A DNA stretch of 64,000 nt from Sedimentisphaerales bacterium (GCA_963708075.1 OY970194.1:4544001-4608000), one strand, 5' to 3'. Shown: positions 1 to 60,966, counted from the stretch's first letter. Program-made: numbers and translations. Notes: generated from the letters alone by a model not told the origin.

Positions 1-2513
1 TGTGATCGCATATAGACGGACCGCCCATCGCTGGACAAGATATCGGGCAAAGCTACGGGCATGGTCAGCCCCTTGACATAACTTTGCAGGTTCTTGCCGG
101 TGTCCGGGTCGCGATCGTCGAGAACAGTTTCGGACAACAAGCGACCGGTGGTAGGGTCCAGCCGCAGCAGGTGCAATCCGCCATCCAGGAACATCGACCG
201 TCCCGCTGTGCAATACAAGACGCCGTCCTGCACGAGCACGCTGCCGTGGACGGGCCACAGCGATTCGACCTGCTCATACGCTGTCATCCGCAGGTCTGCA
301 GGGGCGGCACGGAAACGCCAGATCAGTGCCCCATCCGAGGCCCGCAGGCAGTACACCCAGCCGTCGGCCGAGCCGAACAGGACCCGTCCTTTCCAGATCG
401 TGGGCGGACTGTCCACCCGCCCGCCGGCGGTATAGCTCCACAACCGCTCGCCGGATGCGCTATTCAAGGCGTACACAGTATGAGCGTCGATGGACGCGAC
501 GAACACCTTGCCCCCGGCTACGACAGTTGCGCTGAGCCGGCCGGAGATCTCGGTTTGCCAAAGACGCACGACGTGGTCCGCAACGGATGTCCCCACACTG
601 CCGCTGCGTGCGCCGTCGTGCCGGTAGGTCGGCCAATCCGCCGGCGACTCCTCGCTTTGAAGTTTGCCCGCGTACGCAGGGCCTTTCTCCAGGCGGTTCA
701 CCTGGCCGGCTTGGACGATCACGTGCATCGTGAACGAATCCGGAGCCAGCGCGTTGAAACCGCACAACTTCGCTTCGAGATAGCACCCGCAGGGATGTGG
801 CGGTGCATAGAGCAGTCCATTGCAGGGCAGAACGCCGTACAGGCACGCGCCGCGAACCCAGTGATTCGTCAGCCACGTCTCCTTCTGCGGGTCGATGAAC
901 TCCGTGCCGTTGCGCAAGGTCAGGAAGTAGCGGTCGGTTGCCTTGCTCGGATAGCAGCGATGGTGGAACCAGTAAATGTCCACGTCGGGCGAAAACTGCT
1001 TCTTCAGCTCGCCCGTGCGCGGATCGAGCCCTCTGTAGATGCCGGTATCCGTCGTATTCGCGATAGGCGCGGACCAGACCAGGTCCTGCACGATGAACAA
1101 GTCTTCCGGCGACTGGTGCCCGGAGCGGAAGTGCTGGCCGGTCCACAGGGTTTTTCCCGTCTGCGCCGCGACCGCGGTCATGGATCGCGTCCCGCCCGCG
1201 AAGAGCACGATATCCTGCCAGGCCAGCAGTCGCGGCCCGAAGCAGGCGGCGATCGCCGGCCGGCGATCGATCGCCTCCGACTCCCACAGGACTTTGCCCT
1301 CAGTACGATCCAGGCACACGATCTTCTGGCCGTCGTGGAAGTACACCTGCTTGGAATCGGCGGCCAGCGTCAGCGGCGCCACCGGGCTCTGCTTCTTCCA
1401 CAGGACCTTGCCCGTGCTGGTCTCGACGGCCACCACATTCCGCGGCTGCTCGTCCCACGGCCAGTCCGTATTGGCGTGTTGGCTGTTGCTCCAGACGTAG
1501 GAGAATTCCTGGCGATACTGCGGCCACTTCGATGGCTCATCATTGACGAGCAAAAATGCCACGCCGTCGGAGACGATGATCTCCTCGGTATTGGCCGTGC
1601 CCTCGTACGTGCGGATCGTCTTGCCCGTGGCGGCGTCCAACGCTGTCAGGGGAGCATCGAGTCCGAGCGTCACGTACACCGTCTCCCCTACCGCCACGAG
1701 GCGCCGCGTGACTTGGGCCGGGCCGCTCTTCAACGGCCATTTGTGCGTGTTCCACGCCGGGATCGAACGCTTCCACAGAATCGTGCCGTTGAAGGCGTCC
1801 CGTGCGATCAGGGACCAGTGCGCCGGCAACTGGATCGAGGCCCGCGAGCCCTCGTCCATGATATAGAACAGCCGGCCGTGCGCCGAGACCAGCGCGCTGA
1901 TGCTGGACATGTGGTCATGGTGCCGCGACCAGCGCGGGCTGCCGATCCACTGGTACCGGCGCGGCGGGCCAACGGTCGTGTCATGAGCGACAGGATTCGC
2001 CGTAGCATCATGAAAGTAATGCGTCCACTCGTCGATCTCCTTGGGCCACGGCTTGGTGATGCGCTTCCAGCCCTGCCCCTCTTTGAGACACGCGACGCCG
2101 TTGGGTGCCAGGACGCGAGTGACCTCGCTCATGGGAATATCGCCGAGGCGCTCGGCCACAAGCAGATTGACGAAGTTGTCCACATACGGCAGGCACGCGC
2201 CGGCCAGACGATCCACCGAGACAGGCCCGTAAAGGCCCTGTGACATGATGTACTTGCGGGCCTCGCCGACGACGTTCGGGTCGGTATCCAGTCCCTGGAC
2301 AAGGAAACCATCGCCGGCCCGCAGCGCCGCCGTCAGTTTCCCGTCCGCGCAGCCCAGGTGGACGACAAAACCGCCCTTGATGCCGGTAGTCTCCAGGACG
2401 TCCTTCGCCATCTGCAGAGACTTATTGTCTTGCGTTGCTGTGTTCGCCGACAAGGTGGGAACTAAGACCGCCAGTAGAGCCAAGCCTGCCAAATGCCACA
2501 TTTCCCGCTGCAT
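1..2513 (-). CDS. PQQ-binding-like beta-propeller (BamB-family) protein with N-terminal methyltransferase-like domain; runs off the left edge
   Basis: Ends read manually on the minus strand (absent from the ORF track, which is expected if there is no stop in the window): AAGGAGG RBS, ATG at 2513, signal peptide MQREMWHLAGLALLAVLV, then GIKGGFVVHLGCADGKLTAALR and LPYVDNFVNLLV...EVTRVLAPNG, typical of planctomycete PQQ-like proteins; same frame reads ...DILSSDGRSVYMRS at the edge. Confidence 0.85.
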   Translation of the reverse strand, partial: MQREMWHLAGLALLAVLVPTLSANTATQDNKSLQMAKDVLETTGIKGGFVVHLGCADGKLTAALRAGDGFLVQGLDTDPNVVGEARKYIMSQGLYGPVSVDRLAGACLPYVDNFVNLLVAERLGDIPMSEVTRVLAPNGVACLKEGQGWKRITKPWPKEIDEWTHYFHDATANPVAHDTTVGPPRRYQWIGSPRWSRHHDHMSSISALVSAHGRLFYIMDEGSRASIQLPAHWSLIARDAFNGTILWKRSIPAWNTHKWPLKSGPAQVTRRLVAVGETVYVTLGLDAPLTALDAATGKTIRTYEGTANTEEIIVSDGVAFLLVNDEPSKWPQYRQEFSYVWSNSQHANTDWPWDEQPRNVVAVETSTGKVLWKKQSPVAPLTLAADSKQVYFHDGQKIVCLDRTEGKVLWESEAIDRRPAIAACFGPRLLAWQDIVLFAGGTRSMTAVAAQTGKTLWTGQHFRSGHQSPEDLFIVQDLVWSAPIANTTDTGIYRGLDPRTGELKKQFSPDVDIYWFHHRCYPSKATDRYFLTLRNGTEFIDPQKETWLTNHWVRGACLYGVLPCNGLLYAPPHPCGCYLEAKLCGFNALAPDSFTMHVIVQAGQVNRLEKGPAYAGKLQSEESPADWPTYRHDGARSGSVGTSVADHVVRLWQTEISGRLSATVVAGGKVFVASIDAHTVYALNSASGERLWSYTAGGRVDSPPTIWKGRVLFGSADGWVYCLRASDGALIWRFRAAPADLRMTAYEQVESLWPVHGSVLVQDGVLYCTAGRSMFLDGGLHLLRLDPTTGRLLSETVLDDRDPDTGKNLQSYVKGLTMPVALPDILSSDGRSVYMRS

Positions 2514-2757
2514 AGAGGTGCCTCCTTTGATCCGGGTAATAGGAACAGATACTGCCCCAGGATTCTAATGCAGCCACACTCTCAGGGCAACAGACAAGCC
2601 AGCGGCCTTGTGCCTTGGCTGTTTTATCGGAACTGGTATGGCGTCCGAAGCAGAATGGTCGGTCCGTACGGGGGTGGCTGGTAATCCCGTCGGCGGAATC
2701 TGTCGAATCCAGAAGGGACTCAACAGGTATATGGTCGGGGTATGTCTGGAGATTCGG

Positions 2758-4350
2758 ATGAAGACCGAATGGGTTTGGTGCGTGCCGGCGTTGGTGCTCT
2801 CGGTGGTCGGCGTATGCGGCGCGGCCGTGACGGTCGAGAGCCCCAATGGCGGCGAGGCCATCGCGGCAAACAGCCAATGGCCCATCACCTGGCGATGCAG
2901 CACGCGCGTCACGCAGGTGACCATCGAGTTCTCGTTTACTGAAGGTGCATCGTGGGAACCGGTGGCCCCGGACGCTCCGGCCAGTGCAGGCAAAGGCGTC
3001 TTTCTCTGGACCGTGCCATCAATCTCCTCCCCTCGATGCCTGATCCGCATTGCGGACGCAGGCAATCCGGCAGACTTCGACGTGAGTAACGCGGCCTTTA
3101 CAATATTTCCCTGTACCCTGCGGATGGATTATGACGGCGACTGCCTTATCACGTTCGCGGACTTCATGGGGTTGGCCCAGGAATGGCTCAAGTGCGGCGA
3201 CCCGTACGATCCGGCGTGCACGGGCAATCGGCCGCCACGGATCATCTCGACTCCCCCGCTGCAAACCGCCGTCGGGCAATCGTATGTCTACAATGTCAAG
3301 GCCAGCGACCCTGACAACGACCGCCTGGCATACGATCTGCTGATCGCCCCGTCCGGCATGATCATCGACCCCGCTTCCGGCGAGATCACCTGGAACCCGA
3401 CCGGCGAGCGCGAGAATGACACCACCGTGACCGTCCAGGTTCGTGACCGACTTGGCGCGGCAGACATCCAGACGTTCAACCTCGACGCCGCCGTCCTGTT
3501 CACAGGCGCCCCCGTCCAGGGGTTCCCCAACCTTTTCGAGCGACGCGTCCTGGTGTACACCAATTGCGTGCGAATGGCCCCGGAGCAGTACCGTGACAAG
3601 TACATGGCGGGCTTCCAACCGAGCCCCAGCTCAATTCTCCGGAGCTACAGCGCCGTTGAGCCGCTGCGCTACGAGCGGCCGCTTAACGAGTCGGCCCGGT
3701 TCCACGCCCAGGACATGGCCGACCACGGCTGTTTCCAGCACAACAGTTGCGATGGCACGCCCTGGTCCGACCGGATAGAGAGGTTCTATCCCGATGCGTT
3801 CATACTCGGCGAGAACGTTGGGGCCGGCTACGCCACAGCCAAGGAGATGATCGACCAACTGCTGTGCGACGCCTACGGCGGCCAGTGCGCTGCGGACCGC
3901 AGCACGCAGGCGGGACACAGGACCAACATGATGGACACTCGCATGAGGGTGCTCGGCACAGGGTACGTGTACAGCGCATCGAGCGCATACCGCTGCTATT
4001 GGGTGCAGGACTTCGCGGGCAGCGCGCCGACGGACCAGACGCCGATTGTGGCTGCCTGCCACGACTTTCTGGCCGCCGGCAAGACCTCTTTCCTGCTGAA
4101 CTACCGTGACGAGAGCAATCTTCCGCCCGCCTCCATCCAGGTCCTGGTCAACGATGTCCCGTACAACCTGACCCTCGACCTCGGTACCGCAGCCGCAGGA
4201 ACCTACCGCCTGGACCTGCCCACGGCTGCCGCCTGCCGCAAGTACTACTTCCTCGCCGTCACCGCTTCCGGCGAAGTCTGGCGATACCCCGGCCCCGGCG
4301 CCTTCCTCACCAGCGGCGAAGGCCCCTGCACCGCCGACTACCAGCCATAG
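2758..4350 (+). CDS. Secreted CAP (SCP-like) domain protein with Ig-like domains and a dockerin-like motif
   Basis: Signal peptide; VESPNGGE Ig-like start; DYDGDCLITFADF...WL dockerin-like motif; NRPPRIISTP...YNVKASDPDND Ig/cadherin-like repeat; CAP motifs ARFHAQDMA, FQHNS, GENVGAG, GHRTNMM, YWVQDF. Confidence 0.85.
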   Translation: MKTEWVWCVPALVLSVVGVCGAAVTVESPNGGEAIAANSQWPITWRCSTRVTQVTIEFSFTEGASWEPVAPDAPASAGKGVFLWTVPSISSPRCLIRIADAGNPADFDVSNAAFTIFPCTLRMDYDGDCLITFADFMGLAQEWLKCGDPYDPACTGNRPPRIISTPPLQTAVGQSYVYNVKASDPDNDRLAYDLLIAPSGMIIDPASGEITWNPTGERENDTTVTVQVRDRLGAADIQTFNLDAAVLFTGAPVQGFPNLFERRVLVYTNCVRMAPEQYRDKYMAGFQPSPSSILRSYSAVEPLRYERPLNESARFHAQDMADHGCFQHNSCDGTPWSDRIERFYPDAFILGENVGAGYATAKEMIDQLLCDAYGGQCAADRSTQAGHRTNMMDTRMRVLGTGYVYSASSAYRCYWVQDFAGSAPTDQTPIVAACHDFLAAGKTSFLLNYRDESNLPPASIQVLVNDVPYNLTLDLGTAAAGTYRLDLPTAAACRKYYFLAVTASGEVWRYPGPGAFLTSGEGPCTADYQP

Positions 4351-46863: not shown

Positions 46864-48230
46864 ATGAGACGAGCAGCAGTGAGTGTGGCAGCGGTGTTTC
46901 TGGGGATTCTTCTGGCGGGGGTTCCGCGCGGGCGCTGGGGCAGGAGCATGGCGACTTTCGCGAGATCATCACGCGGGCCAAGTCGGAGGTGTTTCCGGCG
47001 CTGATCTTCGTCAAGCCGATCGTCGAGGACTACGGCAGCGGCGAGAAGAAGCAGCAGGAGGTGTTCGGGTCGGGCGTAATCATCAGTCCCGACGGATACG
47101 CAGTGACGAATTGGCATGTTGTCGACAAGGCCGTTACGATCAATTGCGTCCTGTACGACAAGCAGCAGGTCAGAGCGGAGTTCATCGGGTCGGACCGCGA
47201 TACCGATCTGGCCCTGCTCAAGCTGCCCGCACGCGAGGGCGGCCAGGCTTATCCATGCGCGCGTCTGGCCGACTCGGCCGTGGTCCAGGAAGGCGATTTC
47301 GTCATGGCTTTGGGAAGTCCGTTCGGATTTCAGCGGTCCATCAGTTTGGGGATCGTTTCGAACGCGCAGCGATATATCGGCTTCACGACCGAATACAAGT
47401 ATAACACGTGGATTCAGACCGACGCGGCGATCAATCCGGGCAACAGCGGCGGGCCGCTGATCGATACGAAGGGAGCCATCGTCGGCATCAATACGCTCGG
47501 TGTCGAAGGCAGCGGGCTGGGGTTCAGCATCCCTGCGCCGACGGTGCGGGACACGGTCGAGCGGCTCAAACGCGACGGCAGAGTCATCCGGGCCTACACG
47601 GGACTGCTCCTGCAGGCGTTGAAAGACTTCCAGAGCAACACATTTGTCGCCGGCGAGCATGGCGTGCTGATCGCGGGAGTGGAGGAGAACAGCCCGGCGG
47701 CCCAGGCAGGCATCCGCGCGGGCAATATTCTGTTGAGTGTCGACGCGCAGCCCGTGGAGGGCCTGTATGCGGAGATGCTGCCGGACATCTGGCGGCGGCT
47801 GGCGGATTTGCCCGTCGGCAAGCCTGTGCCGATGGAACTGCTGCGCGGGGGCGAGACGGTCCGCGTCGAGGTCACGCCGGAAGAGAAGGGAAAGCTCGAA
47901 GGCGACGACTTCGATTGCCGCCGATGGAATATGACGGTGAAAGAGATCAACAAGTACCGCACGCCCCGCCTGTACTACTTCCGGCAGGCCGGCGTGTACG
48001 TGCAGGGCGTGAAGTACCCCGGCAACGCCGCCGCGGCGGGCCTGAGCGAGCAGGATATCATCCTGAGCATCGACAAGCAGGCCGTCGCGACTATCGAGGA
48101 CGTGAAGAAGATCTACGGCAAGCTGCTGGAGGACGCGCAGCGGGAGAAGAAAGTAGTGTTCGAGGTCATGCGAAGCGGGCTGCGAAAATGGATTGTGCTG
48201 GATTATCGCCGGGATTACGAAGAGGAATAA
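46864..48230 (+). CDS. HtrA/DegP-like trypsin protease with two PDZ domains; frameshift near 46930
   Basis: Signal peptide MRRAAVSV...; GSGVIISPDGYAVTNWHVV, DTDLALLK, QTDAAINPGNSGGPL. Confidence 0.92.
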
Positions 48231-48232
48231 CA

Positions 48233-50891
48233 ATGAAGACGTGGAAATATCGAGTGCCGGTTCTCGGCATCATTCAACCTTATTCATCCCACCAGGACAC
48301 TTCCGGGGCACAGAGCGGGTGGCATGGGCAAACTCGTTTGCCCGTGGAGCATAGCGAGGGCATCTCTTCGGCGAACTCAGGGCAGGCTTTGCCCTTGTCC
48401 TGCGGAGCCATGGTGGATCGACGCCTGATAAAGCGAGGCCAAGCTGGCCTTGCGACGCAAGGGCGGGACGCCCTCGCCACCATCCGGCCCAGTCGAGACA
48501 GCACCGTCAAACGAGTTTGGCGGTGCCACCCGCTGATTCTCGTGGTAGCGACGGTTGCGCTGTGGGCGGGTCTGAGCGGATCGACACTGCGGGCGGCCGA
48601 GCAGGACAAGGACGTGCCGTGGGAGAAGATCTATCAGAACACCCGGCAGAGCTTTGTAATCGTCAGCTATCATCTGAAGAAGAGCGACCGTCCCGGGCGG
48701 GAAGTTGGATACGCATACGACCGCGACTACGGCACGGTCCTGCAGCGAATCCTCAACAAGAACGCGACCGACGTTCTCGGCGTGATCGTCAGCGACAAGG
48801 GCGAGATCTTCACGTTTGACAGGGACCCGGTGTATATGGATACGGTGGCGAAGATCACCGTCGAGGGCCCGGACGGCACGGTCGTGCCCGCTGAATTCGA
48901 CCGGCTGCTGGTCAAGACCTCCGGCCGCATCCTGCGGCTTCCCGGCGGTCTGCCGGCGGGGTGGAAGGCCCTGCAGTTCGCCGAGGTCGGCGAGATCACT
49001 CCCCGCACGCTGCTGTACGCCGCGACGATGAGGCCGGACAAACAGAACCACGTGTCCATCCGGCCCTGCGAGTACGGTTGCAGTTGGAGGAGCGCCGAGC
49101 CGGGCCAATGCCTTCAAGCGCCCGGCCTCTACTGCATCGGTGTGATCTGCAATGCCGAAGGGATGCCCGTCGGCGTCACCAGCCGCGAGCAGATCGATCT
49201 GGGGTCCGCGGGCGCCGCGTGGAAGGGCAAGGACGTTCTGGCGGACGCGGGTCTGCCGCACGAGCAGCAGATACAGCTTGAAGAGAAATTGAAGCAGGAC
49301 TTCGCGGCCAACCTGTACGAGATCACGATCACGTTCCGGCCGGAGCCGCAGGAGGAAGAGGCGTACGACTTCGGCGGCAGAAGTCCGTTCGGCAGGTACC
49401 AGCGCGGGGGAGGCGAAGGCAATCGGGAGGCGCTCGTGTACGGTTCCGCGTATGCCGAGAACAGGCTGCTCATTCCGGACGCCCTGCCGCGGGAAGCGGT
49501 CGCCGGAATCGATACGATCGCGGTCAAGGTCGGCGATGAGTCGCTGGCCGCACGGTTCGGCGGAGTCCTCAAACAATGCAGCGCCACCGTGATCGAGCTC
49601 GAGGCGGGCAAGCTGCCGCACATCATGGATTTGTCGGCCGCCGCCAGGCTGACGCGGGTCGAGCCGTTCTGGGCGGTCTCCGTGCGCGAGCTCGGCGGGA
49701 TGGATGTGGAAGCGGAATTCAATCGCTGGATGGACGAGCGGCAAGGCTACGGCGATGAATGGTACCCGGCGATGGACCGGCCCCTGCAGACGGGCTGCTG
49801 GCTGCTGGACCACCAGGGAAGGCTGGTCGGTTCTCTACTGCCGGGCGAGACATGAGGAGGATCGGCTGGAGCCGTACCTGATAAGCCGGCAGTCCGGCCG
49901 CTACTCGCAGTATTCCATGCCCGCGTCGGCACGAATGGGCCGCGGCGTGGCGCCCGCGTGGGACCCCGGCTACAGCATAGACACCCGCCCCTTTGAAGCT
50001 GCTGAGCTGGCACGGTTGCTCAACAATCTGCCGGAGAACTCCGATCCGCTCATCCGCCACCTGAGCAAGGACGAGCAGAAGCGCCGGGTCTGGCTGGGCG
50101 TGGAGTACGTGTCGCCGGACAAGGAAATGGTCAAGCAGTTGGGCCTTCGCCAGCCGACCCGCGACGGACGCATCGGCTTGGTAGTCAATCGCGTCTACCC
50201 CGGCTCGCCCGCGGCAAAGCTCGGCCTCGTCGAGGGCGACGTGCTCCTGAACATCGCCGTGCCCGGGGCCCCGTGGCCGATCGAGCTGGCGTCCGACGAA
50301 CGCGGCGAATTCGAGATGCCCGACTTCGAAGAAGCGGACGTGCCGAAGGAATTCCAGGCAATGGGCATCCCGATTCCCCGCAAGCGGCCCTGGCCGAGCC
50401 AGGACAACTATCTGACCCGCATGCTCGCGGACATCGGCGCCGGAACGACCGTGACGCTCTGCTATCTGCACGACGGCCAGAAGAAGGAGCAGGAGTTCAC
50501 CATTGAGCAGGCCCCGAGGGACATGCTCAGCGCCACCAAATACAAGAATGAGAAGCTCGGCCTGACGGTCAAGGAACTGACGTACGAGGTGCGCGCGGCG
50601 CTGCGGCTGCAGGAGAATGACGCGGCCGTGGTCATCACCCAGGTCGAGCAGGGCACACCGGCCGCCCTGGCTCGCATCAACGGCTACGAGCTGATCCGGG
50701 CCATCGATGGCGAGCCCGTCGCCGGCGTCGAGGCGTTCGAGAAGCTGATCGCCGCCGCACAGCAGCAGAACAAGGAATCGGTGCGGCTCACCGTCGAATG
50801 GATGGGCAAGACGCGCCTGGCCGATCTGAAGTTCGAAGCCGCCCCCGCCGGCCCGGGCCTGCTCCGCTCCATCCTCGGCGGCCAGGAGTGA
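48233..50891 (+). CDS. PDZ-domain protein with probably degenerate protease-like domains; frameshift near 49835
   Basis: GAGG RBS and ATG 3 bp after the htrA stop; RVWLGVEY, VYPGSPAAKLGLVEGDVLL, second PDZ; no GNSGG motif. Confidence 0.75.
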
Positions 50892-52805: not shown

Positions 52806-53288
52806 TTAGGCACTTTTGACTTCGACTTTCTTTCGTTTGGCGCGGGCCTGTTCGCTCTTGGGCAGTCGGATCGTCAGCACGCCCTTGCTGAACTCGGCCT
52901 CGGCCTTCTCCTCGTCCACCGCCGTCGGCAAATCGATGATCCGCTCGAAGGCCCCGTAGGAGGTCTCGCGGTGGTAATAACCTTTTTCTTCCTTCTTCTC
53001 CTCTTTTTTCTTCTCGCCGGCGATGCGGACAGAGTCCTGGGTCACTTCCACGTCGATATCGTTCTGGTCCATGCCGGGCAGTTCCGCCGCGACAATGACC
53101 TGGTCGTCTTCCTCTTTGACATCCACGCTCGGGATGAAGTTCTCCGCGAACCGGCCGGCCTCGCCGAACGGGGCCATCCAGAAGTCTTCCATCAGCCGTC
53201 TCATGTCGTCGAACGGACGCATAAAGAAGCTTTCGGGTTCCCGGCGACGCAGGCCCCTGCTCGGTCTGAAGATATCCGGTAACGCCAT
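52806..53288 (-). CDS. Hsp20/alpha-crystallin small heat-shock protein
   Basis: PSVDVKE, AELPGM, ETSYGAFER, AEFSKGVLTIRLPK. Confidence 0.95.
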   Translation of the reverse strand: MALPDIFRPSRGLRRREPESFFMRPFDDMRRLMEDFWMAPFGEAGRFAENFIPSVDVKEEDDQVIVAAELPGMDQNDIDVEVTQDSVRIAGEKKKEEKKEEKGYYHRETSYGAFERIIDLPTAVDEEKAEAEFSKGVLTIRLPKSEQARAKRKKVEVKSA

Positions 53289-53601
53289 GGGTCACTCCCT
53301 TTCCAAAAAGCCCAAGTTCGTGCGTGTCGATGCCTGCATTATGGTCCATTGGAGTCTCCCGGCCTATCGGAGAATCCCCCATTTGAGCCGTGCCGATTGC
53401 CTAAGAAACTCGTAAATTCTCCTTGACGGGGTGCCGGGAATGGGTTTAATGGGGCCGGTTGCATGTAGGATGGGCTTTAGCCCATGCTGCCGTTGTTGTT
53501 CCACGCGAGAACCGACCGCACCGGCAAAAGCCCGTCCTGCGCGACTTGTCTCTTTGGAGACGGAAGTTGCAAGGATTCGGCATACTTGGAAAGGATTGCC
53601 A

Positions 53602-54381
53602 ATGCGGAGTGTGAAGCTTTCGACCGTGTTGATCGTGCTCGTTCTGTCCGGGGGGATAGCCTTGATCAGCGGCTGCAGCGAGCCGGACTTGCGGCGTCGC
53701 AACCAGATCCAGCAGGATGAAATCTCGAGACTGCAGAGCGAGTTGCAGGCCGCCCAGATGCAGCTCGATCAGCTTAAGCGGAAACTGCAGGCCTATGAGC
53801 AGACCGAAGGCGTCGAGGTCGATGCCCTTCGCCAGAAGATCGCCGCCCTCGAAGAGGAGCTGACCAAGAAAGAAGAGTTGATCAAGTCCATGCAGTCGCG
53901 GCTGATGGGCCTGACCCCCCTGCCGGTCGAGCTGAACGCAGCGCTGGAGGAGCTCGCCAGACAGCATAGCGACCTGATCGAGTACGATCCCAACCACGGC
54001 CTGGTGAAGTTCAAGAGCGACCTGCTGTTCGAGAAAGGCAGCGACAAGGTGACGACTGCCGCCGAGGAGGCCCTCAAGGCGCTGTGCGGGATCCTTAACT
54101 CCGAGCAGGCCAAGGAATTTCACATCATCGTGGCCGGACACACGGATGACATCCCGATCCGCCGGGCAGAGACCCTGATGCAACACCCCACAAACTGGTA
54201 CCTGTCCTCCCACCGGGCCATCTCCGTCTTGAACTCGCTGCAGGGCTGCGGCATCGCTCCGGAGCGGATGAGCACCCGTGGATTCGGCGAATATCGACCG
54301 ATTGCCCCGAATGCCCCGAGCAAGGGCGGCAATCCGAAGAACCGCCGCGTGGAGGTCTACATCGTCCCGGCGGGCACGTAA
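53602..54381 (+). CDS. OmpA/MotB-family peptidoglycan-binding lipoprotein with coiled coil
   Basis: Lipobox LISGC; DLLFEKGS, AGHTDDIPI, NWYLSSHRA, GFGEYRP, NRRVEV. Confidence 0.92.
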   Translation: MRSVKLSTVLIVLVLSGGIALISGCSEPDLRRRNQIQQDEISRLQSELQAAQMQLDQLKRKLQAYEQTEGVEVDALRQKIAALEEELTKKEELIKSMQSRLMGLTPLPVELNAALEELARQHSDLIEYDPNHGLVKFKSDLLFEKGSDKVTTAAEEALKALCGILNSEQAKEFHIIVAGHTDDIPIRRAETLMQHPTNWYLSSHRAISVLNSLQGCGIAPERMSTRGFGEYRPIAPNAPSKGGNPKNRRVEVYIVPAGT

Positions 54382-55069: not shown

Positions 55070-55873
55070 GTGAGAGTGCTCGTAGCGATTGCCATCAGCA
55101 CTATCTTCGCGTCACTCGCGCCCGGCGAAGTCTTCGTGACAGCATATCGCTGTGACGGCACGACGCCTTTGACCCTCAAAGATCCCAATGCCCCTTATGT
55201 GTACTCGGATATCATGGTCGGCACGAAGCTGGTTCTGATTGTAAGCTCCGACGAGTCCCGCACGAGAGACCCTTGGTGGGGTGCTTTGCTGTCCACGTGG
55301 GACAATTGGGAACGCGGTAAGCTGGCGGGCAGGGGATACGCCGCGCGCGATGCGGCGAGCGATGCGGGGATCGTTAAGGTCTGGAACTACTGGGATTCGT
55401 GCCTTCCCGCCGCCGGCAGCCACCCGCTCGCGACTCTTGTCGAATACCCTGAATTTGATCTCAACAGGGTCGGTTTTGATCTGACGACATACCCCGACGC
55501 CCTCGCAGGTGACTGGTTTGTCCTCGACTACGTCGCGGAGAAGGTTGGCTCGTCCCAGGTAGAGTGGTTCGACTATGCCCTGAGTTTCGACGTGCCGAAA
55601 GAGACGCTCTCCTTTACCCACGTTCCCTCGCGGGATTTCCAGGGCAACGGCATCGTCGATTTCGCTGATTTTGCCTCGCTGGCCTCCCGCTGGCGACAGC
55701 CGGTTGACCCCAATGCCGATCCGGCATCCCCGCACGATCTTGACGCGGACCACCTTATCGGCCCCTCCGATCTGGTGCTGTTCAGCGGATTCTGGCTTGA
55801 CCGAACAGACTGCGCCGCTCCGGCAGAGCCTAACGCTGCCCCGGCAGAGCCTAATACCCCTGCCGGACTTTGA
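55070..55873 (+). CDS. Secreted protein with C-terminal dockerin-like (EF-hand) domain
   Basis: AAGGAGG RBS, GTG start, signal peptide; DFQGNGIVDFADFASLASRW and DLDADHLIGPSDLVLFSGFWL duplicated motifs. Confidence 0.8.
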   Translation: MRVLVAIAISTIFASLAPGEVFVTAYRCDGTTPLTLKDPNAPYVYSDIMVGTKLVLIVSSDESRTRDPWWGALLSTWDNWERGKLAGRGYAARDAASDAGIVKVWNYWDSCLPAAGSHPLATLVEYPEFDLNRVGFDLTTYPDALAGDWFVLDYVAEKVGSSQVEWFDYALSFDVPKETLSFTHVPSRDFQGNGIVDFADFASLASRWRQPVDPNADPASPHDLDADHLIGPSDLVLFSGFWLDRTDCAAPAEPNAAPAEPNTPAGL

Positions 55874-56060: not shown

Positions 56061-57850
56061 ATGATGAAAGCGCGATTTTTGTTGCCAGTGGTTGTCCTGT
56101 CGTTGTCCCTGACCGCCGTAGCATCGGGCCAGCGGACCCTTCAATCCGATGAGATTCTCCAGGTTTTCCACAAACTGACCAGCCAGCCTCGCAATACCTG
56201 GATTCCCGCAGGCACGATCGAGGCTACGCACCGTGAGCAGCGAGAGCCGAAGATCACGGACTCCACGGTCCTCCGCGATGAGATCGACAGGCGAGTCAAG
56301 GAGTACAAGGACAAGCCCAACAAGATCGAATTGACGGACGAGTTGCAGAAGATGAAGCTCGACGCCATCCCGTTCAACGTGCGTTTCAAGCTCGCCAACA
56401 AGCACACGATGGACTCCACGGTGGTCGTAAAGTGCGATGGGGAAAGGTTCTACTGGGAGACCAATGTGGATTCTCGCCAGGATTCCGTAATGCCCGATTG
56501 GAGCCTGGCGGGCAACTTCATGACGGAGCAGTTCGACCTGCCTTTCAACCGAAAGAGTGTCTTTGCATGGGACGGCGATGAATACGTCACCTACACGGTT
56601 AGCGGCATGTTCGCCACCGTGGATGCCGCGGGCCGGCTGCCGCGTGCGGTCAACGGACCGCTGACGGCGGGCATAGTTCCCTGGGGTTATGGCCGATTCA
56701 CCTATAACAATCTCCTTCTCGCCGACGCTTCGGCAATGGAGTTGGCCTTGAACGGCGAGAGCCTGATCCTGATGTCTCTCGACTGGGCCGATGGCTCGTC
56801 GGCGAGCCTCACTCTCGATCCCTCCAAGGACTACGCCGTGATCGCCTGCACCCTTCCAGCGGGCAGAGAACCAGGTGTCCGTCAATGACTATGGGGATTA
56901 TCGCCTGGTGGGCAGCTACTGGGTCCCGGGGACCATCTTCATGGAGCGTCGCGATGCAATCACAGGCAAGCTGCTGGGCTCGGACCAGTGGACCCTGGTC
57001 ACTGTCGACGGCACGGTTCCTCCTCCCGGCAGCTTCACCGTTGAGTACGAGCCAAACGCATTTATCCAGTATTTCTCGAACTTGACCACAGAACCGACTA
57101 CGTTCCTTTACTCGAGTTCGATGGACATGCGCCGGCTTCTGGCGGATCGGCTCGCCTACATCGCCTCCGAGGGCAAGCAGCCGCAGAATTGTGCCACTGC
57201 GGCCGTCGGCTACGTAGCGTCCCGACTGGGCAAGACCGTGCCGGACGGCACGCTGGCGACCCTCGTCAAGTCCGGCGGACAAACCACCCTGTCCAGCATG
57301 AAACAAGCTGTCGAAGGCCTCGGCCTGTATTGCAGGGCTATCCAGGCCGATCTGGCAAGCCTGCAGGACCTCGGATCCGCCAAAACGATCCTACACCTGC
57401 CGGCAGAGAACCATTTCGTCGTCCTCGATTCGATCGACAATGGGCGCGTCCAGATCGTCGATCTGTCCGACAGCAAGTTCTGCTATAGCGACACCGTCGA
57501 TTCCTTCAAGCAGCGGTGGTTCTCAGGGACCGGCTTTGCTGGTTTCCTCCACGCCGATCGCCGGGTCTTATGCGAAGGTCGATGACGCAGGTCTTACAAC
57601 GGTTCTCGGTGGTTGGGGCTGGGCCTGCACCAAGCTCCTACAAAGTGAACACTACTATCTCTGCGATCCACCCTGCTGCGGCTACTTCACATGGTACTGG
57701 GGGAGATATGGCTGCCAGACAGCCGAGAGCGGCACATGCTCCAACCAGGTACTCGTTCGATTCCAGGAAATGGCCTGTGTTTTCGATTTCTATCAAGACT
57801 GCGTGGGGGATGGGCGCTGGTACTTTTATAACATGCTTGCCTGCAAGTGA
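56061..57850 (+). CDS. Secreted C39-like cysteine peptidase fused to a double-glycine leader and a Cys-rich tail; frameshifts near 56862 and 57532
   Basis: AAGGAGGAG RBS; signal peptide; QPQNCATAA (Cys), TTLSSMKQAVEGLGL, ILHLPAENHFVVL (His), FKQRWFSGT-ALLVS; then VDDAGLTTVLGG and 78 aa with 9 Cys. Confidence 0.75.
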
Positions 57851-57897: not shown

Positions 57898-58695
57898 ATG
57901 AAAGGTACCGGCCTCACACTTGTCGAGTTGCTTGTCGTGCTTTCGATTACCGCCTTCCTGGCGGCCCTGCTGCTCCCCGCCTTCCACAAGTCGCGGGAGC
58001 AGGCGAAGGCCACGACCTGTGAGGCCCGCGTACGGCAACTGGCCTTCGCGCTGCATGCCTATGAAGGGGACAACCTGTCGTTTCCTTATGGATTTGGCGG
58101 CCCCCGCAAGGTGCCTCCACCGGGCGGCTACCCGGGCAGCGCGCTAATCGATCCCCTGGGATGGTGGTGGTTCAACTATATCGGCGCAGTCCACTACAGG
58201 ACGGCCAGGGATAAGGACGCGCTGCGGTGTCCATCCAAACGACTCGAGGATGCAGCGCTGCAGCGGGACATCCTCTGCGGCAACTACGGGGTGAACCGCG
58301 CCATCTGCAAAAGCGCCAGCAGCAGTAAGCCTGACAGCGAGTTCGAGGGGATTCCTCTATCCATAGGCGCCATCCGTCACCCGGCATTGACCTTGCTCGT
58401 CATGGATAGCGGGTACGGCCTGATCTGCTGGTGGCATGCGACAGAGGCCCCCCCGGTCACATTCGGCAGCACGATCCAGGACACCGCCTATGTTCCCGGC
58501 CTGGAGATCAACAAGCTCAAGGCACTCTGGCCCGGACAGGCTCGCGACGCCATTGACGACGGCCGGCATCTCAACAAAACGGTCAACATTGCCTTTGCAG
58601 ATTCTCACGTGGAACGAAGGAGGGCCCACGACCTGCTCGTGGAGAAAACGGACGAAGGCGGCTGGGACTACAGTCCTCTATGGTCGTCCGAGTGA
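57898..58695 (+). CDS. Prepilin-type N-terminal cleavage/methylation protein (DUF1559-like)
   Basis: G/LTLVELLVVLSITAFLAALLLP...REQAK...C; NYGVN; RHLNKTVNIAFADSHV. Confidence 0.9.
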   Translation: MKGTGLTLVELLVVLSITAFLAALLLPAFHKSREQAKATTCEARVRQLAFALHAYEGDNLSFPYGFGGPRKVPPPGGYPGSALIDPLGWWWFNYIGAVHYRTARDKDALRCPSKRLEDAALQRDILCGNYGVNRAICKSASSSKPDSEFEGIPLSIGAIRHPALTLLVMDSGYGLICWWHATEAPPVTFGSTIQDTAYVPGLEINKLKALWPGQARDAIDDGRHLNKTVNIAFADSHVERRRAHDLLVEKTDEGGWDYSPLWSSE

Positions 58696-60377
58696 TTCTG
58701 CGATTCAGGGAAGAGACGTTGGATATCGAGCTCCACCTCCTGCCGGGTCGGATACTCGAATCTGTACGTGTCCATCAATTGCCATTGCTCTTCGCCCGGC
58801 ATCAACCGGGACGATTCCATCCTTTGGGGTAATCCACTGTCAGGATCGAGGAAGGCTTTCAGCCTCTTCTGCATCACGAGGCCATTGGAGGCCTTGCTGT
58901 CCCAGGTGTATTCATGGGCCGCCTCGCCCTGCCCAATGCCTTCGGCAGCATCAAGCGCCAGAGGCTGCAACCTTCCATCCCTGGGAGTGTCGCCCAGCGC
59001 TCGTCCCAGAGTAGCATTGATGGCCTTCATTATGCTCGTGTGTTCATCCTGCGTCAGCAGGGCTCGCTCGGGTGTCCCCCGGCCCGAGAGACGGACTATT
59101 ATCTCGCGGCTTGTGAAATCACAGAGCGTGTCACCCCGCGCGTCTCTCAGCGCCACTAGTCCTGAGCCACGCGCCATCAACAACTCTTCCACCAGTGTCC
59201 CATCGGGCCCATACCGCGTCAGATGAAGGTTTTCGATGCCCATGATGGTGTCGGAGAGTTGTTGCACTCTGACAGCGGATGCGGGCTGGATATTGACGAA
59301 CAGGGCAATGGCCAGGGGAATCATCGCCGCGGCCAACAGCCCGGCTTTCAGGACCGGCCTGAATTGCGGGCTCCCCAGCCTTCGGCCCAGCGCCTCGCGG
59401 ACCCCGGCGATCGGCAGAAGCCGCGTCGTGGCCGGCTCCGGCTCGCGATGGGCCACTTCCACGTGGATCGGATACGCGCTGTAGAGGCTCTCCTCCACCT
59501 CTGGGCCGCCCTTTACGGCCTCGCTGCCGGTCGTATAGACGGTGGAGACGCCGGAATCGACCCGCTCGGCCACGCCGTAGATTGTGCGATGCAGCACCTG
59601 CATCCGTTCGATGCATTCGGGGCAGGCCTGAAGATGGGAAGGCATGGCCTCGTCGCCGTCACAGACGTGTTCATGGTTGCCGTCGGTCCGGCCGTACGGC
59701 ACCACCCACTCGAATAGATCGGCCGTCGAGATCCCGCTGCAAAGGCCGACGCCCGGGATCGTGTCTCCGGGTTGCCGGCCGGCCAGGATCTTCTCGCGAC
59801 ACCGGTGGACCCGCCTGCGGCACCGTGGGCAGGCACACATGTGGTCCAGTATTTTCGCGTCGATGCCGTCAAAGGAGGCACAGGCAAAGGCCCAGGTCTT
59901 CGATCTCGCCCGCCGGCAGATCTGCGGGTCGCCGCCGGAGACTGCCGCATACAGTCGGCTCAGCCGCGCCAATTGCTCGGGCCGAAGCTCCAGCTCGCGG
60001 ATCACCTCCAGGTCCCCGGTGCACCGCCGGCAATGATCCACATGAACGGTAATGGGCGTGGGAATCCGGATCTCTAACGAAGGCACTAGCAGCGCGGGAA
60101 GGAAGGATTTGGCCTTTGCGCACGTGATATCCTCGCCGAGATGAGCGAAGTGAAGGCTTAACGCCCCGACGACATCCGTGCCGCCCTCAGGCGTGCGATC
60201 CTGGGCCTCGGACTCAGCAATGGCAGCCTCCAATTGCCGAATCTGCGTCCGACAGTGGGCACACTGCCGGATGTGGTCGGCCACGGCTCGCGGAATATCC
60301 GCATCGAGGCCACATAGATAATCGTAATAATGTGGCTCGGCGTCCGTGCAAAACATGCTTTGGCCAAAGGTGACCAT
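58668..60377 (-). CDS. Anti-sigma factor with four zf-HC2 (ZAS)-like motifs, one TM and an extracytoplasmic domain
   Basis: HIRQCAHC, HVDHCRRC, HMCACPRC, HLQACPEC; TM AGLLAAAMIPLAIALFVNI; directly downstream of an ECF sigma. Confidence 0.8.
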   Translation of the reverse strand: MVTFGQSMFCTDAEPHYYDYLCGLDADIPRAVADHIRQCAHCRTQIRQLEAAIAESEAQDRTPEGGTDVVGALSLHFAHLGEDITCAKAKSFLPALLVPSLEIRIPTPITVHVDHCRRCTGDLEVIRELELRPEQLARLSRLYAAVSGGDPQICRRARSKTWAFACASFDGIDAKILDHMCACPRCRRRVHRCREKILAGRQPGDTIPGVGLCSGISTADLFEWVVPYGRTDGNHEHVCDGDEAMPSHLQACPECIERMQVLHRTIYGVAERVDSGVSTVYTTGSEAVKGGPEVEESLYSAYPIHVEVAHREPEPATTRLLPIAGVREALGRRLGSPQFRPVLKAGLLAAAMIPLAIALFVNIQPASAVRVQQLSDTIMGIENLHLTRYGPDGTLVEELLMARGSGLVALRDARGDTLCDFTSREIIVRLSGRGTPERALLTQDEHTSIMKAINATLGRALGDTPRDGRLQPLALDAAEGIGQGEAAHEYTWDSKASNGLVMQKRLKAFLDPDSGLPQRMESSRLMPGEEQWQLMDTYRFEYPTRQEVELDIQRLFPESQNHSDDHRGL

Positions 60378-60387
60378 TTACACTCCC

Positions 60388-60966
60388 TCACTCAACCGCC
60401 AATTTCCTCCTGAGCTCTCTCAGGCCCGACGTCAGATAGCGGCTGACGCTTCGCCTGTCGATGCCGATCTCAGCCGCGATCTCCGCAATACTATAATTGT
60501 CCCGATACCGCAGAGTCATGACTTGCGCTTCCCTTCGTCGTAACTTTCCGATCAAGCACGCGAATACGGAACTCTTCTCTTCCGTTTCCTCTGATATGGC
60601 GTCTTGTGAGGGGTCATTGTAGATAACAATCTGGCTTCTTTCCGCATATTTTTTCAAATGGCGATGTTCCTGTTCCTGCTCTCGCACCACATCGACGGCG
60701 TCACGGAGGATCGTCCGATATAGGTACCCTCTGATGTTCTGCACATCGGCCGGCACGGGTCGATCGACAAGCGTCAGGAACAGTCCCTGGAACAGGTCCT
60801 CCCGGCGTGACGCGTCACGGACGCGCAGGCGGATGAGGTTACGGATGAAACTGCCGTGCTCGGCGAAGATCTTGACCGCCGCTGCCACGGCCTCCCCCTG
60901 GTGTTCGGTGCTTATGCCATACTCTCTCACAGGTGCCCACTCCAACTCCCTTCCACGCTCTGACAA
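60388..60966 (-). CDS. ECF (sigma-70 family) RNA polymerase sigma factor
   Basis: REDLFQGLFL, GYLYRTILRDAVD (region 2); LRYRDNYSIAEIAAEIGIDRRSVSRYL (region 4). Confidence 0.88.
   Translation of the reverse strand: MSERGRELEWAPVREYGISTEHQGEAVAAAVKIFAEHGSFIRNLIRLRVRDASRREDLFQGLFLTLVDRPVPADVQNIRGYLYRTILRDAVDVVREQEQEHRHLKKYAERSQIVIYNDPSQDAISEETEEKSSVFACLIGKLRRREAQVMTLRYRDNYSIAEIAAEIGIDRRSVSRYLTSGLRELRRKLAVE

Follow-up and report, generated by a model that had tools for sequence, protein, structure and literature searches.

Double-glycine leaders are usually met as cytoplasmic export tags which are read by ABC transporters. In a stretch of 64,000 nucleotides from a Sedimentisphaerales bacterium (the window; all positions are counted from its first letter), a segment resembling such a leader lies inside the reading frame of an exported protein, behind a C39 peptidase domain and ahead of a cysteine-rich tail, the core. 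This raises the question whether the peptidase cuts its own chain, and to what end. A first-pass annotation, made from the sequence of the window, had regarded the gene as a candidate self-processing peptide precursor. We compared the gene, its relatives and its neighbourhood over a large set of genomes.

One gene with two assembly errors

In the assembly, the gene is spread over three frames:

56061-57850, + strand: C39 gene (frames 56061-56888, then to 57585, then to 57850)

The first-pass annotation had read these as one polypeptide interrupted by two single-base insertions, to be checked against sequencing data. This reading was confirmed, as both extra bases are absent from contigs of public runs. 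The first, at 56869, is missing from contigs X1, X2 and X3. The second is missing at 57520 in the X1 contig and at 57523 in the X3 contig. Under the rule that a bridging contig must carry 31 letters on each side of a break, the first break is bridged by X2 (otherwise identical) and X3, and the second by X3 alone, a related strain that departs at 14 further positions within 201 letters. The X1 contigs, which may stem from the source sample, show both gaps but end only 29 and 20 bases past them. Both extra bases are assembly errors. The read-corrected ORF has 594 residues from the second ATG (about 595 residues), with Cys376, His450 and a Gly-Gly pair ending at 516. Because the frame changes right after RW at the second break (57520-57523), the string 'RWFSGTALLVS' given for the C39 domain in the earlier reading was slightly wrong.

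Homologues align end to end with all three frames, and 139 of 160 fetched loci contain an intact single ORF as judged by an intact-ORF filter. The dN/dS ratios, determined from 35 disjoint pairs, are 0.19 for the N-domain, 0.19 for the C39 domain, 0.40 for the leader and 0.29 for the core; all four regions are under purifying selection. The view that this is a pseudogene or a set of three distinct genes could be argued from the two frame breaks in the window and from breaks of the same gene in two further genomes (G013 and G021). Against the contigs lacking both bases, the intact loci and the dN/dS values, this view is largely refuted already, and we consider it extremely improbable. The breaks elsewhere (L012/L077 in G013; L231, G021:C10) occur in two few-contig assemblies and are probably similar errors. 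Within the window, a long PDZ-containing gene (47408-50891, + strand) is likewise found in two overlapping frames (47408-49855 and 49704-50891) adjoining a trypsin/PDZ protease gene, possibly due to another single-base assembly error.

Of 61 related genomes, 42 gave a match to the middle piece of the gene, in nearly all cases within an open frame of ~600 codons; in the genus, 22 of 23 genomes did so, its own excluded. A phylum-wide draw gave matches in 10 of 301 genomes, with full-length matches from the same order. A profile search returned 845 proteins at 90% clustering, the best 120 of which are annotated as C39-domain or hypothetical proteins from Sedimentisphaerales and Phycisphaerae; clustering at 50% gave 619 representatives. 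Conservation was counted in 84 proteins of at least 535 residues among the best 150 of these 619 representatives ('the 84 homologues'). PF03412 is the sole Pfam domain in the full-length homologues scanned.

An exported C39 peptidase with a LolA-like domain

The enzyme part of the chain is composed of the following elements:

56061-56129, + strand: Sec-type signal peptide without lipobox Cys, read by eye from sequence and alignment
56130-57100, + strand: predicted LolA/LolB-like beta-cradle domain, ~320 residues, including the extra base at 56869 (from the model of homologue P0122)
57121-57553, + strand: C39 peptidase domain, including the second extra base at 57520-57523 (PF03412, E 6e-13)
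57190-57192, 57412-57414 and 57460-57462, + strand: catalytic Cys, His and Asp, from the sequence

This domain order had been described correctly in the first-pass annotation (signal peptide, a domain of ~340 residues, C39), which missed the fold of the N-domain. The AlphaFold2 model of homologue P0122, built from 150 sequences, has a pLDDT of 92 and a pTM of 0.89. Its residues ~30-340 match structures of the LolA/LolB family (Z 9-12.6, rmsd 4-5 Å, identity 5-10%); the open beta-barrel cradle gives Z 11.4-12.6 to LolB, LolA3, DUF1329 and 3bk5 at an rmsd of ~5 Å. As modelled, the N-domain has a LolA/LolB superfamily fold, which in itself says nothing of lipoprotein carriage. Residues 353-497 of the model match the peptidase domains of ComA (3k8u, Z 13.9, rmsd 2.6 Å, 131 residues aligned), LahT (6mpz, Z 13.8) and PCAT1, with rmsd values of 2.5-2.6 Å.

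The C39 assignment, for which a profile search had been proposed, is supported by PF03412 with 49.2 bits for the middle piece from the window (cut-off 22) and with 31.8-67.8 bits for six of six homologues. Cys, His and Asp are all present in the window copy, and they are conserved in 84, 84 and 81 of the 84 homologues (best 150 of 619) respectively. The column six residues before the Cys, where an oxyanion Gln has been proposed, contains no conserved Gln in this set. In the report on the LahT structure, this Gln is 4.3 Å from the oxyanion, its role is questioned, and His is suggested to be able to serve instead (PMC6363468). The window protein is a member of the C39 family by profile, fold and triad, yet not a PCAT. 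One homologue, P0185 (804 residues), carries a tandem second C39 copy that lacks Cys and His and is placed after the first one, ahead of the GA site and the core.

The internal leader and the cysteine-rich core

The C39 domain is followed by two further segments:

57569-57613, + strand: internal double-glycine leader (Tyr-15, Val-12, Leu-7, Val-4, Gly-2, Gly-1), from sequence, conservation and a segment shared with separate precursors
57614-57850, + strand: core of 78 residues with eight conserved Cys (nine in the window copy), modelled as beta-rich, without a match among solved structures; stop codon at 57848-57850

The register of the leader equals the ComA motif (-15/-12/-7/-4/GG) as quoted in PMC10885120. 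Taken alone, the window leader does not stand out from chance (6.4 bits, rank nine when the genome was scanned in six frames); the motif carries weight because its position is fixed across the family. Among the 84 homologues (best 150 of 619), Gly is found at -2 in 80 and Gly, Ala or Ser at -1 in 77, with both in 73, so that the GG/GA pair which the earlier reading had expected in homologues is indeed present and in leader register. A hydrophobic residue occupies position -4 in 74 and position -12 in 81 of them; at position -7, L/I/V/M/F occur in only 49, or 60 if Ala is included. All five features coincide in 37 of the 84, compared with 7 of the 37,362 remaining positions of these proteins. 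The 11 homologues which lack G-[G/A/S] all retain Cys and His; in seven of these, position -1 is D, E, N, R, Q or T. Curated GG-leader models matched six of 12 leader-plus-core pieces below cut-off, five of the six on the leader itself; the piece from the window gave no match.

In the P0122 model, the leader forms a helix from -10 to -5, which recurs when leader and core are modelled separately, and then a strand bridge at -3/-2; a further bridge, of two residues, is located at Thr407-Ser408. The geometry resembles that of the leader bound to LahT, described as a helix from -4 to -11 and a linear stretch from -3 to -1 (PMC6363468). We infer from the model that the leader strand at -3/-2 pairs with the Thr407-Ser408 bridge. 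Covariation couples Ser408 with position -3 at rank 118, in a noisy analysis (329 sequences, effective number 197) in which many of the top inter-domain pairs are probably false.

The composition of the core reported earlier (78 residues, 9 Cys, 5 Trp, 8 Tyr, 5 Phe) was recovered unchanged from the read-corrected ORF. Each of the eight Cys columns is kept in 81-84 of the 84 homologues (best 150 of 619), and all 84 share the same terminal Cys pattern. The first-pass annotation had expected a variable tail. We found instead one conserved eight-Cys fold with a variable surface, not a set of unrelated cargos. In distant homologues, identity is 0.315 in the core and 0.29-0.35 in the N-domain. Modelled together with the leader alone, the core is beta-rich (pLDDT 84). 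The best structural match among 48,161 chains has a Z of 3.4 and Foldseek gave none at E 0.001, which is not proof of a new fold. Sequence comparison with the PDB yielded three chance-level matches only, and the ESM Atlas search nothing usable. Profile, sequence and fold searches did not relate the core to any family or structure of known antibacterials. Neither an orphan nor a second core was found in the window genome. Two VKOR genes are present there, which allows disulfide formation; DsbB was not found in the genome.

The core may not leave the protein. High pTM and couplings between core and LolA-like domain (Glu335-Arg550 at rank 19, Ile205-Trp551 at rank 32, from the same noisy covariation) suggest that it packs on the body. 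If the LolA-like domain cradles the core, a cut may therefore yield a two-chain complex and not a free peptide.

Enzyme and precursor as separate genes

A two-gene version of the system was found in genomes G019 and G021, starting from weak second matches. Three split enzymes, consisting of signal peptide, LolA-like domain and C39 domain, stop just past the last C39 strand, one of them with a short unrelated extension. Directly upstream are four genes for proteins of 124-131 residues, each with a signal peptide, the leader, GG and an eight-Cys core; at L226, two such precursor genes, at 609-992 and 1297-1677, precede in tandem one enzyme encoded at 1803-3203. The leader, internal in the window protein, here follows a Sec-type signal. 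Profile comparison relates the precursors to the fused family with a probability of 98.8% (E 1e-16), over an alignment that begins at -15 and extends to the last Cys/end, and the split enzymes with 100%. The split enzymes keep Cys and His, have Gln at the position of the triad Asp and score below the PF03412 cut-off. In a tree of 40 C39 sequences they group within the fused family on a long, weakly supported branch.

Searches detected 30 stand-alone precursors, for four of which the genomic context was seen. Phe at -15, Ala at -7 and GG are present in all 30, and identity is 0.69 in the leader as against 0.38 in the core. One of the 30 matches a lantibiotic model weakly, and two are labelled as belonging to a candidate division NC10 bacterium. 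The split form is rare: full-length precursor matches occur in two of 401 order-level genomes, and the split-enzyme profile run over 401 genomes of the phylum gave three matches, all fused, and no further split loci. Five short proteins obtained as stand-alone cores in the initial search with the fused profile were all C-terminal fragments of the fused gene; true stand-alone precursors emerged only once distant paralogues had been read.

The split loci L226-L228 (G019:C198, G021:C44) lie among genes for large LamG / F5-F8 secreted proteins, DUF1573 genes, a BlaR1-type M56 gene and a secretin-like gene. At L227, pilin-like genes, two of which flank the locus, and the BlaR1-type M56 gene stand in place of the cassette found in the window. 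Another planctomycete family (L229, G282:C133, 440-5632, - strand) has a related LolA-like domain with a membrane anchor at its end. After its gene come a C39 gene of its own, a small Cys-rich ORF (3301-3639), and then one more LolA-like gene and one more gene that contains C39. This locus is a more dispersed version of the same parts.

The split form is the best evidence, at the level of sequence, that leader and core make up a substrate unit and that the window protein combines enzyme and substrate in one chain. Since enzyme and tagged domain are separate genes in some relatives, the fused protein most likely cuts itself. In the alternative case the leader would be a resident, uncut plug (an auto-inhibitor or a clamp) and the core a permanent third domain, the protease cutting some other protein on a trigger or never. 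A plug agrees with the missing canonical site in 11 of the 84 homologues (best 150 of 619), with the lack of an oxyanion Gln, with a core that is modelled as packed on and coupled to the body, and with a core fold as conserved as the N-domain. However, it should shun a good substrate sequence, and G-[G/A/S] is kept in 73 of these 84; stand-alone precursors with signal peptide retain an invariant GG beside a tail-less enzyme, sometimes two per enzyme; and no other substrate stood out when the window genome was scanned with the leader profile, a weak test as the scan has no power. We therefore regard a permanent plug as unlikely.

A conserved pilin / anti-sigma / ECF cassette

Four neighbours accompany the C39 gene:

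54989-55873, + strand: secreted protein with C-terminal dockerin-type repeat, likely start near 55070 (six of six homologues match PF00404, five over cut-off)
57898-58695, + strand: N-methyl prepilin-type protein of the DUF1559 kind (PF07596 and PF07963)
58668-60377, - strand: probable anti-sigma factor with repeated zinc-finger motifs, one membrane helix and a periplasmic domain (zf-HC2 in 4/14 members, RsiW E 0.056)
60388-60966, - strand: ECF-type sigma factor (Sigma70_r2 and r4_2)

The account of the locus given by the first-pass annotation is borne out as to a single polypeptide with peptidase, leader and tail, of which the released disulfide-rich effector would be a putative product; it overlooked this cassette. 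In genome loci with enough flank, the dockerin gene is directly upstream in 43 of 60 and inverted downstream in 7 of 57, the pilin gene downstream in 52 of 57, the anti-sigma gene downstream in 50 of 53, and the ECF sigma gene present in 44 of 53; all five genes occur together in 30 of 42. The arrangement is conserved over several families of the order. At L124 the anti-sigma gene is kept and the pilin gene absent. The dockerin-type gene of the window itself has no Pfam match. The anti-sigma label is probable, based on zf-HC2, the weak RsiW match, the single membrane helix and the place beside the sigma gene. A lead from the ESM Atlas, and as such only a lead, is that its ectodomain could be LolA/RseB-like.

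No ABC transporter had been noticed near the gene, and the wider comparison agrees: ABC motifs within 3 kb were found in none of 80 genome loci and none of 80 metagenome loci. As the C39 gene itself gives the single PF03412 match in the window genome (92.8% complete), no PCAT able to read the leader was found. The gap between core and pilin gene is 50-137 nt in most loci, so that most loci have no small immunity-like gene after the core; the variable upstream dockerin gene remains a candidate. The window genome (G000) has 73 matches to the cassette pilin profile, 34 to the cassette ECF profile and 15 to secretins (14 over cut-off). Taken together, cassette and LolA-like fold suggest a regulated module for envelope or signalling functions no less strongly than a bacteriocin.

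Several features around the cassette were noted. Upstream of the C39 gene (55941-55950), the word ATCCACATTT recurs in relatives and is a possible regulator or promoter site; among 132 upstream regions (not de-duplicated), 38 have the variant TCAACATT and 21 have ATCCACAT. The upstream alignment revealed this conserved word only and no ECF promoter. A gene for a WYL-domain regulator adjoins the cassette in 3 of 21 loci (L052, L053 and L055). The segment 61814-63111 (- strand) encodes two small exported proteins, one of them containing DUF642. Both have a C-terminal VP-x-hydrophobic-basic tail, which we take to resemble PEP-CTERM-type sorting signals. Before the cassette and outside its conserved neighbours are located what is presumably a small heat-shock-like gene (52806-53288, - strand) and an OmpA/MotB-domain coiled-coil gene (53431-54381, + strand).

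Variation and probable allele exchange

In 30 of 33 close pairs, divergence is higher in the core than in the enzyme, with p below 0.01 for 24 of them; the pairs overlap. Between L197 and L200 there are 2 differences in 1392 bases for the enzyme, none in 60 for the leader and 29 in 237 for the core; many of the changes are synonymous. This looks like allele exchange, with metagenome chimerism as a possible source of the pattern; near-identical enzymes can carry different cores. We rejected the core as a target of a diversity-generating retroelement, as there is no second DNA copy of the core in the genome and the L197/L200 changes touch all bases, many of them synonymously. L077, whose tail is frameshifted, was left out of the close-pair, co-divergence, covariation and fourfold-site analyses and kept among the 35 dN/dS pairs.

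Divergence at fourfold sites in 19 disjoint pairs amounts to 0.29 for the core, 0.27 for the pilin head, 0.28 for the anti-sigma ectodomain and 0.33 for the N-part of the dockerin protein, and to 0.22 for the enzyme, 0.22 for the cytoplasmic part of the anti-sigma factor and 0.18 for sigma. The excess has p values of 0.073 for the core, 0.018 for the pilin, 0.0005 for the anti-sigma ectodomain and 0.89 for the anti-sigma cytoplasmic part. Core, pilin and anti-sigma ectodomain are contiguous on the chromosome. With the enzyme allowed for, core divergence correlates with pilin divergence (rho 0.39, p 0.021, n 34; rho 0.48, p 0.037, n 19), this being one of six comparisons, and not significantly with anti-sigma divergence (rho 0.16 and 0.18). 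L197 and L200 combine different cores with an identical pilin and an identical anti-sigma ectodomain. Because of this pair and because co-divergence is not significant, a strict ligand-receptor lock is disfavoured. Complex prediction for the window core and the anti-sigma periplasmic domain gave 0.00, 0.54 and 0.29 in three runs, with a median of 0.29 against a mark of 0.32, and is counted neither for nor against binding.

These data bear on the use of a core that is cut off. It might be a structural or tip subunit of a pilus-like assembly with the DUF1559 pilin, the protease being FapD-like. The pilin gene next downstream in 52 of 57 loci, the two pilin-like genes flanking L227, the co-divergence of core and pilin, and the many pilin-profile and secretin matches in the genome fit such a role. 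However, shared recombination of adjacent genes explains the co-divergence, adjacency is less telling as DUF1559 pilins are very common in this genome, the L197 and L200 cores differ beside the same pilin, and L124 does without a pilin gene. On balance we hold a subunit role to be somewhat doubtful.

The core might also be an antibacterial of the class II bacteriocin, microcin or polymorphic-toxin type, freed by its own protease. Its leader is of the bacteriocin type, it outdiverges the enzyme (30 of 33 close pairs and L197/L200), and releasing peptidases ahead of a C-terminal toxin are a known design according to PMC3482391. But all cores share one homologous fold and are not unrelated toxins, most loci leave no room for an immunity-like gene after the core, an orphan core is absent from the genome, and no antibacterial family or structure was matched. 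An antibacterial core thus appears quite improbable. Between signalling to the anti-sigma factor and a pilus or surface role, the odds are roughly equal, with antibacterial action lower.

Proposed mechanism

Architecture, triad, leader register and their conservation, together with cassette, split form and allele variation, are direct observations; the following scheme would connect them. Sec would export the chain, and the core would form four disulfides, tentatively C1-C8, C2-C3, C4-C5 and C6-C7 as guessed from hairpin couplings. The leader, which comes after the last C39 strand, would fold back into the leader groove of the C39 domain, as motif, model and split form suggest. The Cys-His-Asp triad would then cut after Gly516, in cis or between two copies, to give a 78-residue core beginning at Trp. 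Up to this point, the scheme is probable: enzyme and substrate are fused, and the protein would mature by its own activity once outside the cytoplasm. Against self-cutting count the 11 of 84 homologues (best 150 of 619) without G-[G/A/S], the lack of a conserved oxyanion Gln, the Cys-less second C39 copy ahead of the GA site in P0185, and Gln in place of the triad Asp in the split enzymes.

The aromatic core might rest in the cradle of the LolA-like domain until it is cut, and perhaps beyond. Judged from gene context, the core could serve as an allele-variable specificity module working with the cassette pilin and the ECF/anti-sigma pair, the leading uses being a signal to the anti-sigma factor or loading on a pilus-like surface structure. 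An extended and rather speculative version, to which we assign a low probability, is peptide signalling without a transporter in diderm Phycisphaerae: the protein would cut off its own core, the LolA-like cradle would hand it to a LolA-like anti-sigma sensor, the ECF sigma factor would switch the cassette on, and strains would swap the core-pilin-sensor block as pherotype-like allele sets.

If the fused protein does cut itself, the double-glycine recognition code operates here in cis and beyond the cytoplasm, and the two-gene form that occurs in nature serves as a built-in control. Fused and split forms offer a direct test of whether a C39 domain alone can process a C-terminal cargo, and the arrangement is a possible self-removing secretion tag for disulfide-rich peptides. 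The work also presents a family of cores of ~80 residues that lack a fold match, and it gives a first way into one of many planctomycete pilin / ECF cassettes.

Comparison with known systems

The first-pass annotation had not recognised the architecture as described before. In agreement with this, no description of the fused architecture, the split form or the cassette was found in the literature searched, most of it openly accessible. Each ingredient has precedent; the combination and its natural split have none in that literature.

With the PCAT peptidases ComA, LahT and PCAT1, the protein shares the fold (Z ~14, rmsd 2.5 Å), Cys-His-Asp and the -15/-12/-7/-4/GG register of the leader. It differs from them in having neither the ABC membrane part nor the ATPase nor the Gln at Cys-6, and in having a Sec signal, a LolA-like domain and leader plus core in the same chain behind the enzyme. 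In classic double-glycine precursors the leader is N-terminal on a separate, ABC-exported precursor; here it is internal.

FapD of Pseudomonas functional amyloid export is a Sec-exported C39 protein whose catalytic Cys is needed in the periplasm and which works without an ABC transporter (PMC5557850). The likeness is thus a Sec-exported C39 domain working without an ABC transporter. FapD differs as a single domain acting on separate and still uncertain substrates. The FapD model NF058616 scored 15-21.5 bits, compared with an equivalog cut-off of 330, and the cassette showed no fap-like genes.

StbD-CT of Citrobacter rodentium contains a C39 domain which cuts its own chain in cis after Gly-Gly (10.64898/2026.05.07.723447). 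There, the site is N-terminal to the peptidase, which is itself the released toxin and acts in the target cytosol, whereas the window protein has a full bacteriocin-type leader and a separate folded core, both C-terminal to the peptidase. Polymorphic toxins, as treated in PMC3482391, may carry a releasing papain-like peptidase before the C-terminal domain. They resemble the window protein in their constant N-part, internal peptidase and exchangeable C-terminal module. Unlike their modules, the cores are alleles of one fold (best 150 of 619 homologues), and no immunity gene or orphan-cassette array was seen.

The agr and comCDE loci are peptide pherotype loci, and the window cassette is like them in having a more divergent central block which covers peptide and sensor ectodomain. 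It differs by an ECF/anti-sigma pair in place of a two-component system, and binding of the core to the sensor is hypothetical. In the RseB-RseA system, a LolA-like periplasmic protein is found next to an anti-sigma factor; the window cassette repeats this pairing, with its LolA-like domain encoded beside a probable anti-sigma gene.
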